A stretch of DNA of 64,000 nt, taken from a virus (taxonomy: Duplodnaviria; Caudoviricetes). This document shows positions 38,300 to 44,056 of the stretch, piece after piece. Below the pieces are notes generated by a model. It was not told the origin of the DNA. It saw nothing but the letters and a program-made list of their open reading frames with translations, and did not search any database. Each line of letters starts with the position of its first letter. Position 1 is the first letter of the stretch. A program made the translations under genes and the position numbers. The stretch lies in IMG/VR virus record IMGVR_UViG_3300038530_003247, positions 65,192-129,191 of that record, one strand, 5' to 3'.

Positions 38300-38950
38300 A
38301 TGGCTAGTGCAGGCGGTTCGAACCCAAGAGCGACGAGGATCAGAACATCTGACCTCAGGACACGCGTTGCAAATGTCGCAACAACAACCAATTATATTGT
38401 CAAACTGCAACCACCCTCGGCCGTTAGTGAATTCTTGAGCTCTAGGGGTTTCACTTATACCAGTGATGATGGTTTTAATGTGGAGTTGTCCTGTAATGTC
38501 GCACAACTTCCTGGTTCTAATTTCCAAACACATTTACAACAGAATGATTATGCTGGTGTGTCAGAGAGAATGGTTTATCGGAGAGAATATGATACAAACC
38601 TGTCTTTCACATTCATGGTGAATAATCGTTATGATGTTGTTGAGATGTTTGATGGTTGGATGGACTTTATTGCAGGACAAGGAGACACCTCAGCATTTCT
38701 AAGTCCTTTTGCTTCTTACAGGACCGCTTATGCAGAAGATTACAGATCAAATATTCACATTACTAAGTTTGAGAAGAATGTTGATGCGAAATCATTGAGG
38801 GGTGAAAGACCAAGACAACTACAATACACCATGGTTGGTGCATATCCCATTTCGACACAACCAATGCAAGTTGGTTATGGAGACAGAAATAACATGTTAC
38901 AATATAGCATTAACATGACCTTCATTCGTTATGTGAGAAAAAGAGTTTAA
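38300..38950 (+). CDS. Tail-tube-fold baseplate protein (gp54-like)
   Basis: SC..AQLPG, FTF...FDGWM, AYP; synteny. Confidence 0.7.
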   Translation: MASAGGSNPRATRIRTSDLRTRVANVATTTNYIVKLQPPSAVSEFLSSRGFTYTSDDGFNVELSCNVAQLPGSNFQTHLQQNDYAGVSERMVYRREYDTNLSFTFMVNNRYDVVEMFDGWMDFIAGQGDTSAFLSPFASYRTAYAEDYRSNIHITKFEKNVDAKSLRGERPRQLQYTMVGAYPISTQPMQVGYGDRNNMLQYSINMTFIRYVRKRV

Positions 38951-39000: not shown

Positions 39001-39717
39001 ATGCCTTTACCAAAAATTGCAACTCCAACTTATCAGTTAGAACTGCCTTCTACAAAGAAAAAGATTAACTATCGTCCCTTTCTTGTGAAGGAGGAAAAAC
39101 TTTTGGTTCTTTCGATGGAGAGTGAAGACGCGAAACAGATTACAACAGCAATCAAGAATGTACTGAAAGCATGTATCTTGACCAGAGGTGTCAAGGTTGA
39201 AACTCTTCCAACGTTTGACATTGAGTTCTTGTTTCTCAACATTCGTGCCAAGTCGGTTGGTGAGATTGTTGAGTTGAAGTTGATTTGTCCTGATGATAGA
39301 ATTACGGAAGTTGACGTTGAACTTGACATTGAAGAAATTCGTGTTCAGGAACAAGAGGGTCACGATAAAACAATTATTCTTGATGACAATCTGAGGATGG
39401 ACATGAAGTATCCCTCCCTTGATCAATTCATCAAGAGCAACTTTGATGTTGGAAATGTAGACATTGAGCAGTCTTTTGAGTTGATTGGTGCTTGTGTTGA
39501 TAGAATTTATAATGAGGATGAGGTTTGGGACGCTGCTGATGTCTCAAAGAAAGAAGTCATCGAGTTTCTTGAGCAGATGAACTCGAAGCAATTCAAGGCC
39601 ATCGAGAAGTTCTTTGAGACGATGCCAAAACTTACTCATACAATCCAAATTACCAATCCAAAAACCAAAGTTAAGAGTCCTATCGTGTTGGAGGGTCTAA
39701 ACTCTTTTTTCGCGTAG
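39001..39717 (+). CDS. gp26: Baseplate hub assembly protein gp26
   Basis: MPLPKI..P.Y.L.LPS, YRPFLVKEEK, IRAKSVGE, FFETMPKL. Confidence 0.92.
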   Translation: MPLPKIATPTYQLELPSTKKKINYRPFLVKEEKLLVLSMESEDAKQITTAIKNVLKACILTRGVKVETLPTFDIEFLFLNIRAKSVGEIVELKLICPDDRITEVDVELDIEEIRVQEQEGHDKTIILDDNLRMDMKYPSLDQFIKSNFDVGNVDIEQSFELIGACVDRIYNEDEVWDAADVSKKEVIEFLEQMNSKQFKAIEKFFETMPKLTHTIQITNPKTKVKSPIVLEGLNSFFA

Positions 39718-39722
39718 GAATG
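39690..39722 (+). promoter_or_regulatory. Candidate -1 programmed frameshift signal linking gp26 to gp51
   Basis: GGAGG 39690-39694; T TTT TTC 39705-39711; -1 frame open into ATG 39720. Confidence 0.6.
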
Positions 39723-39887
39723 GTACACATGACTCTTGAGGCTTATTTCAAACTGAACTTCGCCCTCATGCAGTACCATAAATACTCACTGACGGAGATT
39801 GAAAATATGGTTCCGTGGGAACGGGACATTTACGTTACACTCCTCCAGCAACATCTTGAAGAAGAGAAGAAAAAGCAAATGGAGTAA
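39720..39887 (+). CDS. gp51: Baseplate hub assembly catalyst gp51-like (below cutoff)
   Basis: NFALMQYHKYSLTEIENMVPWERDIYV. Confidence 0.85.
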   Translation: MVHMTLEAYFKLNFALMQYHKYSLTEIENMVPWERDIYVTLLQQHLEEEKKKQME

Positions 39888-41990
39888 ATGGCAGATCCAA
39901 AGAAGTCAAACTCAGTAAATGATAATCCAACATCAACTGACGTTGTGGATGTTGATGAAAGTGTTGCGAAGGCGATTGGAATTCAAGAAGACTTTGACCT
40001 GTCATATGGAGAATACATAACTCTTCTAAAAGAAGCTGCAATCAAAGGAAGAGGAGTCAATCCAACAATTGATGGACCGACAACAGAGAAGGTCACAGAA
40101 GAACTTAAGAGAGTAAGAGGAAAGAAAGGACGGATTAGGCCGAAGGTAAAGAAGATTTCCGTCAGAAAAGTATTCAACAGAAAACCACGAAATACAGGGG
40201 AAATGATTAGTGGTGGGTCTTCTTCTCTTGCTCTGAGGTCGGCAAATCCTGCTCTATCTCCAGAATCGTTGAAAGAAGAGAAGAAGGAAGAAGAAGAAAA
40301 AAAAGAGATGAGGATGGACAAGTTTGTCTCATCGTCTCTTCAAAAGATTGCAAAGAATATTAATGACGTTGAGGAAGTTGTTGTCACCATCTTAGGGGCT
40401 GAAAAGACAAAAGCAAAATCAGATAGGACGTCGAGACTTCTTGCGAGAAGAAAAGAAAAAGAAGAATCAAGTGAGAAGAAAGTTAAGGAAGATTCTAGAG
40501 GTTTCTTGAAAGATTTCAAGCCAGAGATTCCTTTCATGGAACAAATCCAGAGGTACTTTGGAAACATTCTTGCTGGTGGAGCAGTCTTAGGATTGTTGAA
40601 TTGGGTCAAGGATCCTGAGAATGAAGGGAAGATTGAATCATTTACAACCTTCTTAGAAGAGACTGCTCCAGTAATTTTGGGTGCATTTGCTGCCTTGGTC
40701 GGTCTTGGCATCGGAGGGAAACTTCTTGGATTTGTGAATCTCTTTCTTCCTCTCGTAAAGGGTCTTATGGGAGTCTTGAGTAAATTAGGTAAGGCTCTTC
40801 TTGGTGCAGGTAAAGCATTGTTGGGAGTCCCTGGTGTTGCTCCACTTGGTGCATTTCTTGCAGGTACAGCTGGAACTCTTCTTGCGATGAAGGGTGCTGT
40901 TGATATTGCAGAGAATGTGGCAGCAGGAGGAGAGGGACAGAAGAAGGCAATCAAGTCATTGGAACAGGAAATCAGAGATCAAGACATCAGAAAGGTTGGT
41001 GACAAATATTATAAGATGGAGGGAACAGAACGACAAATCAAAGCAGGAAAGGGTGACAGAAGAGAGTTGAATGAAGAAGAACAATCCTTTGTTGACGAGA
41101 GAGTTGAGAAGATTGAAAAGATTCAAGCAAATGTTGAAGAGAGAAACCGAGCCAAAGCTGAGATATCAGAACAAGAGAGACTTGAAATTGAAGCTCTGTA
41201 TTCTGACGAGTCAATGACTACAGAATATACAGGTGGTAAAAGAGCTTCTGGAGGAAGAGATAGAGTCCTCAATGAAGAAGGTAAAAAGAGAATGGCTGAG
41301 ATACAAGAAAGAGCTCAAACAGCTAGAGATAAAGAAAATTTATTGTCGAGAATGTATGCTGTTCAGTATGAGAAACCAGAAGAGTATGAAGCTTTAGTTG
41401 CGGAACACGGAGAAGAAAAGGCTCAATATCTCTTGTGGTCTATGTTGACTCATGGTGATAATGTTACTGATGAAAAATTGAATGATGAGTCTAATATTGC
41501 TGAATTCCAGAAGGATACTGGTATTGATCTGAGTGTAACTCCAGTCAAGCAATCAAAGAAGGAAAAGGATCCATTGACAAGTATGGATCCCACAATGATG
41601 GGAGCGAAGAATCCTGCCGTCTTCGAAGCAACCAAGAAGACAAGAACAGATATGCAATCTCGGGGTCTGACACCAGAACAAACTGAAAGAAAGGTTCTTG
41701 AGGCAACAGTATCACAACCTAAGATGCCTGAGATGGTTGGACCCACTGGAGTGGATGCACCAACACTTCCGATTGCTCCAGTGCAGAAGATGAAACCAAT
41801 TCTTGATCCACCTGGGATGGAGGATAAAGATAAATCTACTATCCTTCCTGGACAATCTGGTGGGTCCAATGAACCTTCTGCATCATCTTCATCTCAGGGT
41901 GACATTGATTTCTTCTCATCTGAAGATGATGGTAATGACTCGTTACTTGGTGTGAAGGGTCTTTATAACATAACGGCGGTGGCAACATGA
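39888..41990 (+). CDS. Tail-length/tape-measure-like helical protein
   Basis: Charged coiled-coils plus Gly/Ala/Leu hydrophobic segment; position after gp26/gp51. Confidence 0.55.
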   Translation: MADPKKSNSVNDNPTSTDVVDVDESVAKAIGIQEDFDLSYGEYITLLKEAAIKGRGVNPTIDGPTTEKVTEELKRVRGKKGRIRPKVKKISVRKVFNRKPRNTGEMISGGSSSLALRSANPALSPESLKEEKKEEEEKKEMRMDKFVSSSLQKIAKNINDVEEVVVTILGAEKTKAKSDRTSRLLARRKEKEESSEKKVKEDSRGFLKDFKPEIPFMEQIQRYFGNILAGGAVLGLLNWVKDPENEGKIESFTTFLEETAPVILGAFAALVGLGIGGKLLGFVNLFLPLVKGLMGVLSKLGKALLGAGKALLGVPGVAPLGAFLAGTAGTLLAMKGAVDIAENVAAGGEGQKKAIKSLEQEIRDQDIRKVGDKYYKMEGTERQIKAGKGDRRELNEEEQSFVDERVEKIEKIQANVEERNRAKAEISEQERLEIEALYSDESMTTEYTGGKRASGGRDRVLNEEGKKRMAEIQERAQTARDKENLLSRMYAVQYEKPEEYEALVAEHGEEKAQYLLWSMLTHGDNVTDEKLNDESNIAEFQKDTGIDLSVTPVKQSKKEKDPLTSMDPTMMGAKNPAVFEATKKTRTDMQSRGLTPEQTERKVLEATVSQPKMPEMVGPTGVDAPTLPIAPVQKMKPILDPPGMEDKDKSTILPGQSGGSNEPSASSSSQGDIDFFSSEDDGNDSLLGVKGLYNITAVAT

Positions 41991-44056
41991 TTGGAATGAT
42001 TGCTGGAAGTTTGGCTAAAGGTCTCATTGGTGGGAGCGCCAAGAAGTCCGCGGTGGCTGGTGCAAGTCAAGCAATCGTCAAGAGGACCAAAAAAGACAAA
42101 CAAGTAAAGGAGAAACCAAAGGCAATTCCTTTCAAAAGATCAACTCGTTCATCGGGTGGATTGAGTCTGGCTAACTTCACGAGCGCACTTAAACTCAATG
42201 AGGAAATCAAAAAGGTTGAAGTAAAAGTAGAAGAAGGAGATGAAGGAGATGAAAAGGTTGCGGATTCTTTGTCACTCTTAGACAAAGCCACAAGATCTCT
42301 TAAGAAAGCCATGTTGGGTCTTGTTAACTTTAGGAAAAAAGAAGATAAGAAATTAGGAGAAGAGGAGAGAACTGCGGGGAGAGAGGCAAAAGAGAAAGGA
42401 TTTGAGAGCGGGGCTCTTGGATTTGTCCGCAATATTGTACAACCATTCATCGATAATACGATGGATTATCTCAAGAACATTCTACTTGGTGGAATTATTC
42501 TCGCTCTTGTTCAAAATATTGAGAAGATCTTTAATTACATTGAGAAACTTTGGACTGAGACTCTTGAACCAATTTTCAAATGGTTGAACAAATGGGTCTT
42601 CGGACCAATATGGACTGGATTGAAGTGGATCGCAACCGGAGGTGCTGCACTTATTGAAACAATCATGGAGAATCCTCTGACACAGGGAGTGATTGATCAG
42701 ATTAAAGCTGGCCTTGAGGAGATTGGCAAAGTCTTCAGACCTCTTGAACAAATGATCAAGGATATTACTGGCATTGATTTCGGTTCTGGTGACGGATCTG
42801 ATGATGAAGGTACTAGTGGTCAAACTGCAACTCGTGGTCGTCAAATGGGACCACAATATGAGGGTGGTGGATCTGCCACATTTGATGTGATTGCCTCTGG
42901 TGAAGGAGACTACAACTCAGTCAACCGAGGAACTGCTGGTGACACACCTGGTGGTGCCAAATCTGTTGTTGGAAAAAACCTGACTGATATGACAGTTGGT
43001 GAGGTGATGGCTGCACAATCTTCTGGTCAATTGTTTGCTGTTGGAAAGTATCAGATCATTCCAACCACAATGAAGGAGTTTGTGTCTGGTGCTGGTATTG
43101 ATAAGAATGTAAAGTTCAATGAGGCAACACAAGAGAAGTTCAAAGATTATGTTATCAATGTCAAGAGACCAGAAGTAGGTAGATATTTGAGAGGGGAGAG
43201 TGATGATGTTGAAGCTGCTGCACAGGGGTTGGCCAGAGAGTTTGCATCTGTTGGTCTTGCGAGACCAGAAGCTGGTAGAGGTGTAAATCAATCCAGATAT
43301 GCCGGAACTGGAGGAAACAGAGCATCCATCTCAACAGAAGAGATTCAGTCTGCTTTAAAGAGAGATAGGGCAGCAGGTTCAACCCCAAGAATGATACAAC
43401 CACTCCCACCATCTCAACGATCAAGAGGTTCAACACCTATTCTTCCTGGAGAGAGCCGGGTGTCAAGTGACATTATGGAATTTAGACAGTTTAGAACCTC
43501 AATGGGTGGAGATGCCACGAGACGACCAACTGCTAACCCTGATTATTACCAAATCAGAGAAATGGGTGTTTATGGAAGTGGTAATTATAAGATTAGTCCT
43601 CTGGCTGATGACACCAGTTATGAGATTGGAGTTCACAAAGGTGCAGGACACCATGAGAACAGAGCCTTTGACATCCCGGTCCCTAACAGTTCTGCAGAGG
43701 GTGATCAAGTTGCAAAGTTTTGGAGAGATCGTGGATACAAAGTGATTTGGAGATCAGCTGGTCACTATGATCATGTTCATGTAGAAGTTCCGAGGGAGAA
43801 ATCTAAAGAATTCTTTAGAGTGATTCCGGAACTGCAGAAACAACCAGCACCTCCAAGTGACAGAGCAAAGGAAGTTTCACAAGAACCTTCTTATAGTAAA
43901 AAGAAGAATGTTATCATTGTCGCACCTAGTCCTCAGCCCACTTCTTCTTTTAGCGGAGGAGGAGGTCACAGAGGTGGATCTCGCTCTCATTCTAAGAAAA
44001 GTGCGTTAAATAGTCTTACGAAACAAAGAGCAAATAGTCAACTTTATTCCTCTTAA
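41987..44056 (+). CDS. Tape-measure-like protein with lysozyme-like and Zn-peptidase-like domains
   Basis: IASGEGDYN...AVGKYQIIP.T; HHENRAFD...HYDHVHVE. Confidence 0.65.
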   Translation: MIGMIAGSLAKGLIGGSAKKSAVAGASQAIVKRTKKDKQVKEKPKAIPFKRSTRSSGGLSLANFTSALKLNEEIKKVEVKVEEGDEGDEKVADSLSLLDKATRSLKKAMLGLVNFRKKEDKKLGEEERTAGREAKEKGFESGALGFVRNIVQPFIDNTMDYLKNILLGGIILALVQNIEKIFNYIEKLWTETLEPIFKWLNKWVFGPIWTGLKWIATGGAALIETIMENPLTQGVIDQIKAGLEEIGKVFRPLEQMIKDITGIDFGSGDGSDDEGTSGQTATRGRQMGPQYEGGGSATFDVIASGEGDYNSVNRGTAGDTPGGAKSVVGKNLTDMTVGEVMAAQSSGQLFAVGKYQIIPTTMKEFVSGAGIDKNVKFNEATQEKFKDYVINVKRPEVGRYLRGESDDVEAAAQGLAREFASVGLARPEAGRGVNQSRYAGTGGNRASISTEEIQSALKRDRAAGSTPRMIQPLPPSQRSRGSTPILPGESRVSSDIMEFRQFRTSMGGDATRRPTANPDYYQIREMGVYGSGNYKISPLADDTSYEIGVHKGAGHHENRAFDIPVPNSSAEGDQVAKFWRDRGYKVIWRSAGHYDHVHVEVPREKSKEFFRVIPELQKQPAPPSDRAKEVSQEPSYSKKKNVIIVAPSPQPTSSFSGGGGHRGGSRSHSKKSALNSLTKQRANSQLYSS

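Follow-up and report, generated by a model that had tools for sequence, protein, structure and literature searches.

Phage P2, with its proteins E and E+E′, provides one example of two tail assembly chaperones (TACs) that are linked by a frameshift, and phage lambda provides another. The lambda proteins are gpG and gpGT, and the -1 frameshift that links them is conserved in genes for tail assembly chaperones (Levin 1993; Xu, Hendrix and Duda 2004, 2013, 2014; reviewed in Atkins et al. 2016, PMC5009743). In T4 it is gp26 and gp51 that are listed as hub assembly chaperones, with gp51 needed for assembly but not present in the finished particle (Leiman et al. 2010, PMC3004832), and the gp51 of cyanophages and marine vibriophages has been reported to be without the first ~200 residues of T4 gp51, in an account that leaves frameshifting unmentioned (Sullivan et al. 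2010, PMC3037559). Here the junction of gp26 and gp51 is described in a 64,000-nucleotide stretch of viral DNA, hereafter the window (positions 65,192 to 129,191 of IMG/VR record IMGVR_UViG_3300038530_003247), where a slippery heptamer at 39705-39711, together with its conservation among relatives, makes it probable that a -1 ribosomal frameshift yields a short and a long form of a tail or hub assembly chaperone. The record is a 129-kb IMG/VR fragment, estimated to be 67% complete, and the best nucleotide matches of the window are the Synechococcus phages RN05-S and S-H68 (~71% identity); the source is an uncultured T4-like cyanophage.

Poly-T signals have also been described in myophages of the Vandenendeviridae and Andersonviridae, in which a 'hypothetical' open reading frame (ORF) after the chaperone gene is a -1 extension, the evidence being that each genome has the same unvarying poly-T motif and a -1 frame that is open (Viruses 2025, PMC12846349). 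These TAC-N/TAC-NC pairs belong to other phage families, their motif is GTTTTT and no T4_baseplate domain is claimed for them, although the argument is the same as the one made here for the window. The same paper cites Vladimirov, Gautam and Davidson (Virology 2022;566:9-15) for polyT -1 frameshift signals in the TAC-N genes of T4-like phages. According to the papers that cite it, that study identified which genes encode the tail assembly chaperones in T4-like phages, and the PRFect paper says of it that some T4-like phages have one short chaperone gene and one longer fusion gene. A full-text literature search, which did not cover Vladimirov et al. 2022 itself, found no paper naming a gp26/gp51 frameshift in cyanophages. 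To judge from the citing papers, a poly-T frameshift signal in T4-like chaperone genes has very probably been published already, and the original prediction, made from the letters of the window, that such a shift had not been described for T4-like cyanophages is probably wrong.

The heptamer at the end of gp26 and its conservation

The gp26 gene (39001-39717, on the plus strand as are all the features described here) encodes 238 amino acids in the 0 frame, a product that would be the short chaperone form (TAC-N), and it is the single PF12322 gene in the 129-kb record. The protein matches the Pfam family PF12322 T4_baseplate with an E of 7.7e-72 and 242 bits (cut-off 24.5), residues 9-238 covering positions 2-219 of the 219 in the profile, and matches phrog_150 'baseplate hub' with an E of 2.7e-78. 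Its 0 frame ends TTG GAG GGT CTA AAC TCT TTT TTC GCG TAG. Within this end the heptamer T_TTT_TTC (39705-39711) is in X_XXY_YYZ phase, its first T closing the codon TCT, with TTT in the P site and TTC in the A site, and the stop TAG (39715-39717) lies one codon past it. A sequence resembling a Shine-Dalgarno (SD) element, GGAGG (39690-39694), is a candidate stimulator and is separated from the heptamer by a spacer of exactly 10 nt (39695-39704). The -1 frame reads TTT TTT CGC GTA GGA ATG GTA CAC ATG and is open to a stop at 39885-39887, giving an extension (39705-39887) of 60 codons (FFRVGMVHM...) plus the stop, which would form the C-terminal part of a long form (TAC-NC). The original prediction had named this gp26 end with its phased heptamer, the GGAGG 10 nt before it and a stop-free -1 frame running into the 55-aa gp51 ORF, all of which agree with the window sequence; the transframe fusion that it proposed would be 295 aa long (235 + 60) and not the ~294 aa that had been given.

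The 55-aa ORF itself (39720-39887) carries the usual label 'gp51 baseplate hub assembly catalyst' and matches phrog_634 with an E of 8e-27. It also matches positions 242-281 of the 282 in phrog_150, a profile of the gp26 family, and this second match gave the earliest indication of a link between body and tail. From the sequence it is predicted that the tryptic peptides SPIVLEGLNSFFR and VGMVHMTLEAYFK could come from the shifted product only, with SPIVLEGLNSFFA marking the 0-frame end. Across the window TTTTTTY is found at 15 sites against 52.8 +/- 9.5 expected, with all of 100 shuffles having more, and the site at 39705 is the sole correctly phased one within a real long ORF; this avoidance fits selection against accidental slippery runs.

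It is apparent from a survey of 273 loci that the arrangement is not peculiar to the window. The survey took in the window, 13 regions of GenBank phage records and 259 IMG/VR loci recovered in searches whose queries were the gp26 sequences of the window, P-SSM4, KVP40, phiM12 and Cronobacter phage S13, and it spans cyanophages to KVP40, phiM12, pf16, Cr30, phiAS5 and S13. Body and tail were located with hidden Markov models (HMMs) built for this analysis, and synonymous sites were compared among 46 representatives with less than 60% identity. Of these loci 262 have a -1 tail, none has a +1 tail and three have the tail in the 0 frame (T4 gp51, Aeromonas phage Aes012 gp51 and the metagenomic contig L145), the 8 remaining loci being truncated or too diverged. 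Every one of the 262 has the phased heptamer, as T_TTT_TTC in 245 and T_TTT_TTT in 17, and in homologues that depend on the slip the first Phe is never encoded by TTC; nor is there a single stop in the -1 frame between heptamer and tail. It had been expected that TTTTTTY would be kept at the nucleotide level, with gp51 constantly in the -1 frame and no -1 stop before it, and this is borne out throughout these loci.

The conservation extends to the nucleotides. The codon before the heptamer is AGT, TCT, AAT, GAT, GCT, ACT, GGT or CAT, which amounts to seven amino acids, and it ends in T in all 262 loci. Among the 46 representatives the only invariant third bases are those of the start ATG, of this pre-heptamer codon (T in 46/46, against a background of 36% T) and of the first Phe of the heptamer (TTT in 46/46). 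The second Phe is TTC in 41 and TTT in 5, and at the other invariant Phe columns the split of TTT to TTC is 24:22, 32:11 and 23:20. The 0-frame stop moves, lying 0, 1, 2, 3 or 8 codons past the heptamer, yet the -1 spacing to the tail core is constant, without indels; as -1 stops and indels are absent despite the moving stop, the linker behaves as coding sequence.

The possible start codons of a separate gp51 are far less constant. In the window they are ATG 39720 and ATG 39729, the former being replaced by CTG, TTG, CTA or CTT in many close relatives, and over the family the first ATG of the -1 frame varies among codons 4, 5, 6, 8, 10 and 11 past the Phe-Phe. In 97 of the 262 loci there is no ATG within 16 codons of the Phe-Phe (it is at least 17 codons downstream or absent), and in 67 there is no GTG or TTG in that span either. 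These start-less loci, amongst which are close relatives of Prochlorococcus phage P-SSM4, Aeromonas phage phiAS5 and Cronobacter phage S13, still keep the peptide FFR[IL]AL[SL]H[DE]xLxNYYxxNF from the Phe-Phe on. Each of the 13 public phage records either omits the tail or gives it as a small protein in its own right ('gp51, baseplate hub assembly catalyst' or hypothetical), S13 having no ORF annotated at the tail position.

A few sequences depart from the common layout. In L145:601-1491 (IMGVR_UViG_3300049043_000112, 236 kb) body and tail form a single ORF through a 2-nt deletion, TCT TTT TGG TTA GGA ATG against TCT TTT TTC GGT TAG G, which could be a natural variant with the long form only or an assembly error. 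Fused proteins of ~300 aa from ENA metagenomes (P0001-P0005 and P0024) carry the exact predicted junction ...SFFR[VL][ASG]M[VI]HM and were considered as proof of natural fusion; they were rejected as such, being singleton clusters of which some run into the next gene. Such run-on is seen in, for example, P0003 and P0007, and these one-ORF proteins are probably homopolymer errors in long-read assemblies. A different departure is found in Vibrio phage 1.255.O._10N.286.45.F1, labelled Ackermannviridae (L092:2170-2400), where the gp26-like gene ends TCA CTT TTT CGC TAA TG: the heptamer is broken, stop and start overlap as TAATG and the tail is too diverged for the tail HMM. This lineage may have switched to coupled initiation.

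The T4 proteins and the fold of the chaperone body

T4 has no slippery site at this position and carries two genes where the window has one gene with a -1 tail. Both T4 proteins belong to the PF12322 family of the window gp26, one being short and tailless and the other long with a homologous tail, and they are encoded by diverged genes (20% identity) on opposite strands. The long form, T4 gp51 (249 aa), has PF12322 over residues 1-201 (E 3.9e-52) followed by the tail and covers positions 13-280 of phrog_150, whereas T4 gp26 (208 aa) has PF12322 alone and covers positions 14-235. The tail of the window can be aligned gap-free with 45 diverged tails and also with the C-terminal end of T4 gp51, the alignment with the latter taking in the transframe peptide together with its linker, and thus the architecture that a slip would make exists as one polypeptide in T4. 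Together with the frame and the conserved heptamer, this architecture supports the suggestion of the original prediction that the small gp51 annotation may be the tail of a transframe protein.

T4 also offers a natural control. Its gp26 needs no slip and keeps ...RGLKEFF..., but this is spelled GAG TTC TTT, which destroys both the run and the phase, so that the heptamer has been lost where it is not needed. In Aes012 gp26 the Phe-Phe motif has been lost altogether. In a maximum-likelihood tree the gp26 and gp51 N-domains of T4 and Aes012 form sister clades (support 99/94), apart from 54 single-gene forms, and this tree would fit a duplication that gave gp26 and gp51 in the T-even line, a tentative suggestion given the long branches. 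T4 gene 51 lies directly upstream of genes 27-28-29, the hub and tail-length genes.

The predicted fold of the body points in the same direction as the lambda comparison. The N-terminal 100 residues of the window gp26 were modelled with a predicted local distance difference test (pLDDT) score of 86, and the nearest neighbours of this domain in VIA-align are 3fgx (Z 7.9, root-mean-square deviation 3.7, 86 aligned) and the HK97 TAC 2ob9 (Z 7.8, deviation 3.9, 85/104 aligned), followed by Bacillus subtilis YqbN 3klu at Z 7.1, 5ir0 at Z 5.5 and, after these, unrelated chains at 4.2. In Foldseek the top ranks go to the same entries (3fgx with probability 0.97, 2ob9 with 0.77), as weak matches with E of at least 0.1. 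With moderate confidence, and on the strength of these models, the N-terminal domain may be called TAC-like. A Foldseek search of the PDB with the whole protein gave nothing at E of 0.001 or below, and a profile search against PDB sequences gave no match. An AlphaFold2 model of the fused protein P0001 (302 aa), used as a stand-in with an alignment of 97 bodies and tails, has a pLDDT of 93.3 and a predicted template modelling (pTM) score of 0.87, and in it the junction and the tail are helical.

Signals around the heptamer and rival explanations

Amongst the 46 representatives the Glu codon at the site of the SD-like element is GAG in 22 and GAA in 9, compared with 32% GAG elsewhere in the gene (binomial p 1.3e-5), and over all loci it is GAG in 167 of 219; the SD core is present at this site in 31 of the 46. 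There is a likeness to E. coli dnaX, whose -1 frameshift is stimulated by an internal SD sequence: in the window GGAGG precedes the heptamer by 10 nt, and across the family this position is enriched in GAGG, although the heptamer is another one, the SD-like element is not universal and the conserved 3' stem-loop is lacking. The signal thus appears to consist of the heptamer, joined in most lineages by an SD-like element upstream, and the stop codon close by may perhaps contribute.

Downstream of the heptamer the mean z of single-sequence folds is -0.9 to -1.3. For the window the 3' fold has a z of +0.9 over 55 nt, whilst over 96 nt it reaches -20.7 kcal/mol (z -1.65), equalled in 13 of 200 shuffles. 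A window hairpin at 39719-39779, which starts 8 nt past the heptamer and lies within the 96-nt fold, pairs AUGGUAC...GUACCAU with an inner CAUGA...UCAUG and is not conserved in close relatives. Strong stems of 9-11 bp begin 5-7 nt past the heptamer in L081:1420-1470 (P-SSM2; 11 bp) and in L153, L173 and L083, with single-sequence z down to -3.8, and stimulatory structures may be lineage-specific. The T-run was also considered as an intrinsic terminator or as part of a promoter, neither of which was found at the site, terminator-like hairpins lying elsewhere (39810-39827).

It might be supposed that there is no recoding here at all, and that gp51 is a separate protein of 52-55 aa that arises from independent initiation, or from termination-reinitiation, at ATG 39720 or 39729, with the T-run serving as a U-rich translation enhancer of the ribosomal-protein-S1 type. 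Database records do annotate two genes, stop-start overlaps (TAATG, TGATG) are seen in KVP40, Cr30 and BUCT608, and Vibrio phage 1.255.O has kept its TAATG with the heptamer lost (CTT TTT). For an enhancer, however, both the exact codon phase and the T at the wobble position of the codon before it would be dispensable, the position of the ATG wanders where the -1 spacing is fixed, the start-less loci have no start for a complete tail that is nevertheless conserved from the Phe-Phe, and in T4 the tail is covalently joined to a gp26-like body. The 97 loci without a usable ATG mean that independent initiation cannot be the mechanism of the family; initiation at ATG 39729, which had been raised as a caveat to the frameshift, is possible in the window and fails as a general explanation. 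Taken as an account of the locus, a separate gp51 is thus improbable. It is still harder to believe that the heptamer is a by-product of a conserved Phe-Phe and codon bias and that the -1 layout is an accident of compact genomes. The Phe-Phe is indeed conserved as protein, even in T4 gp26, and TTT is the commoner Phe codon (330 against 167), but codon bias does not give 46:0 TTT at the first Phe when other invariant Phe columns have mixed codons, nor a T in 46/46 at the end of a preceding codon that varies in its amino acid. T4 gp26 spells the pair TTC TTT, TTTTTTY is avoided elsewhere in the window, and the heptamer, synonymous-site and T4 gp26 data already contradict such an origin, leaving it with a negligible chance of being correct.

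Slippage by the polymerase is a rival of another kind, as the addition of one U on the T6 run would give a minority of mRNA from which the same fusion is translated. An identical product, a homopolymeric signal and the failure to find a conserved RNA structure downstream would all suit it. The PRFect paper, in its summary of Vladimirov et al. 2022, gives the mechanism as two separate genes, which may be placed on the same side. Against slippage by the polymerase, for which the length of the run alone should matter, the run is locked to X_XXY_YYZ and ends in C in 245 of 262 loci though a longer T7 run should favour a polymerase, and the enrichment of GAGG, at a spacing like that in dnaX, speaks for the ribosome. 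Known bacterial sites of transcriptional slippage have runs of about 8-9 or more, and the run here is 6. The phase lock, the terminal C and the enriched GAGG together favour the ribosome over the polymerase, and transcriptional slippage is considered unlikely.

Some observations nonetheless weigh against a -1 ribosomal frameshift. The ATGs of the window lie 3 and 12 nt past the stop, the second with AGGA (39716-39719) 9 nt before it, and a free tail of 52-55 aa could also be made. The SD-like element is missing in about a third of the representatives, and no downstream stem or pseudoknot is conserved, RNAalifold giving no consensus (energy 0.0) in 41 diverse or in 64 close sequences. U_UUU_UUC is outside the best-characterised efficient bacterial shift sites, and the resemblance of the N-terminal domain to TACs stays at Z below 8 on predicted models.

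From the signal, its conservation and the domain architecture, which are observed, we infer a ribosomal mechanism, a ratio of the two forms and a set of binding partners. For most ribosomes translating gp26, synthesis would end at TAG 39715 with the 238-aa short form. A minority would slip back one base with tRNA-Phe on U_UUU_UUC (39705-39711), read on through CGC GUA GGA AUG... and add 58 residues, giving the 295-aa long form whose tail is the so-called gp51. Both forms would share the whole gp26 body, that is the TAC-like N-domain together with the remainder of the T4_baseplate fold. If lambda G/GT and T4 gp26/gp51 are taken as analogues, they may act jointly, in a ratio set by the frequency of the slip, to build the baseplate hub and the tail tube around the tail-length protein that is encoded next, and by the same analogy both would stay out of the virion.

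Neighbouring genes and the meaning for T4-like phages

Directly upstream lies a tail-tube-like gene (38300-38950; PF23849 Phage_TTP_2 with an E of 5e-12, phrog_45 'tail tube' with an E of 3e-21), and the gene at this position in relatives is annotated tail tube, gp19-like or gp54. Directly downstream a gene for a 700-aa protein with a glycine-zipper-rich hydrophobic centre (39888-41990) likely encodes the tape measure or tail-length protein, to judge by weak similarity and the annotations of relatives. The protein has no Pfam or NCBIfam match and a protein atlas gave unnamed viral clusters only; in one-to-one comparisons it matches the annotated tape measure of Cr30 weakly over a Gly-rich segment (E 0.002), and a comparison with T4 gp29, again over a Gly-rich segment, is not significant (E 0.09). 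Genes at the equivalent place in phiM12 and Cr30 are annotated tape measure. The next gene (41987-44056) overlaps the end of the tape-measure-like gene by 4 nt and encodes a 689-aa protein with a lysozyme-like centre (phrog_37890 with an E of 4e-74, phrog_1200 'endolysin' with an E of 1e-8), which may be a tail-associated cell-wall hydrolase. A search of NCBIfam found no family for any of five proteins searched.

The order of a tube-like gene, gp26, the -1 tail and a tape-measure-like gene recalls that of lambda V-G-T-H, with the tube-like gene in place of V. There is further likeness to lambda G/GT in the proposed short and long products with a common N-terminal body, in a -1 slip at a phased heptamer a few codons before the stop and in a predicted TAC-like N-domain fold (Z 7.8 to HK97 2ob9). 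The analogy with lambda that had been drawn from the window alone therefore gains support from the gene order, the predicted fold and T4 gp51 as the fused form in one gene. It has its limits, in that there is no detectable sequence similarity to lambda gpG, the window body of ~235 aa has extra domains compared with the ~140 aa of gpG, the lambda heptamer is G_GGA_AAG as opposed to U_UUU_UUC, and the T4 function is described as hub assembly and not as tube polymerisation.

A wider reading can be put forward with some reserve, as it is more likely to fail in one of its parts than to hold in all of them. Under it the frameshift would be the ancestral and near-universal route to the long chaperone across the T4 superfamily (here the Kyanoviridae, the KVP40-like and Chrysonvirus Straboviridae, phiM12, pf16, Cr30 and Menderavirus), the two-gene form of the T-even phages would be a derived exception, and the 55-aa 'baseplate hub assembly catalyst' of hundreds of genomes would not be a protein of its own. 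In picocyanobacteria, which have little SD-led initiation, elongating ribosomes would still use the anti-SD to set the rate of the slip. Parts of this wider reading may go beyond Vladimirov et al. 2022.

The value of the window is that of one more well-documented member of the family, along with the comparative statistics. The mechanistic point is a modest one, namely that very different hosts would respond to a simple signal, U_UUU_UUC preceded by GAGG and lacking a conserved 3' structure. If the slip is real, the annotation of these genomes needs to be corrected, as the functional product would be the 295-aa long chaperone. The T4 superfamily would then join the general rule of long-tailed phages that their chaperone pairs are linked by a frameshift, and genes 26 and 51 of T4 would be a duplicated and resolved version of the frameshift pair.

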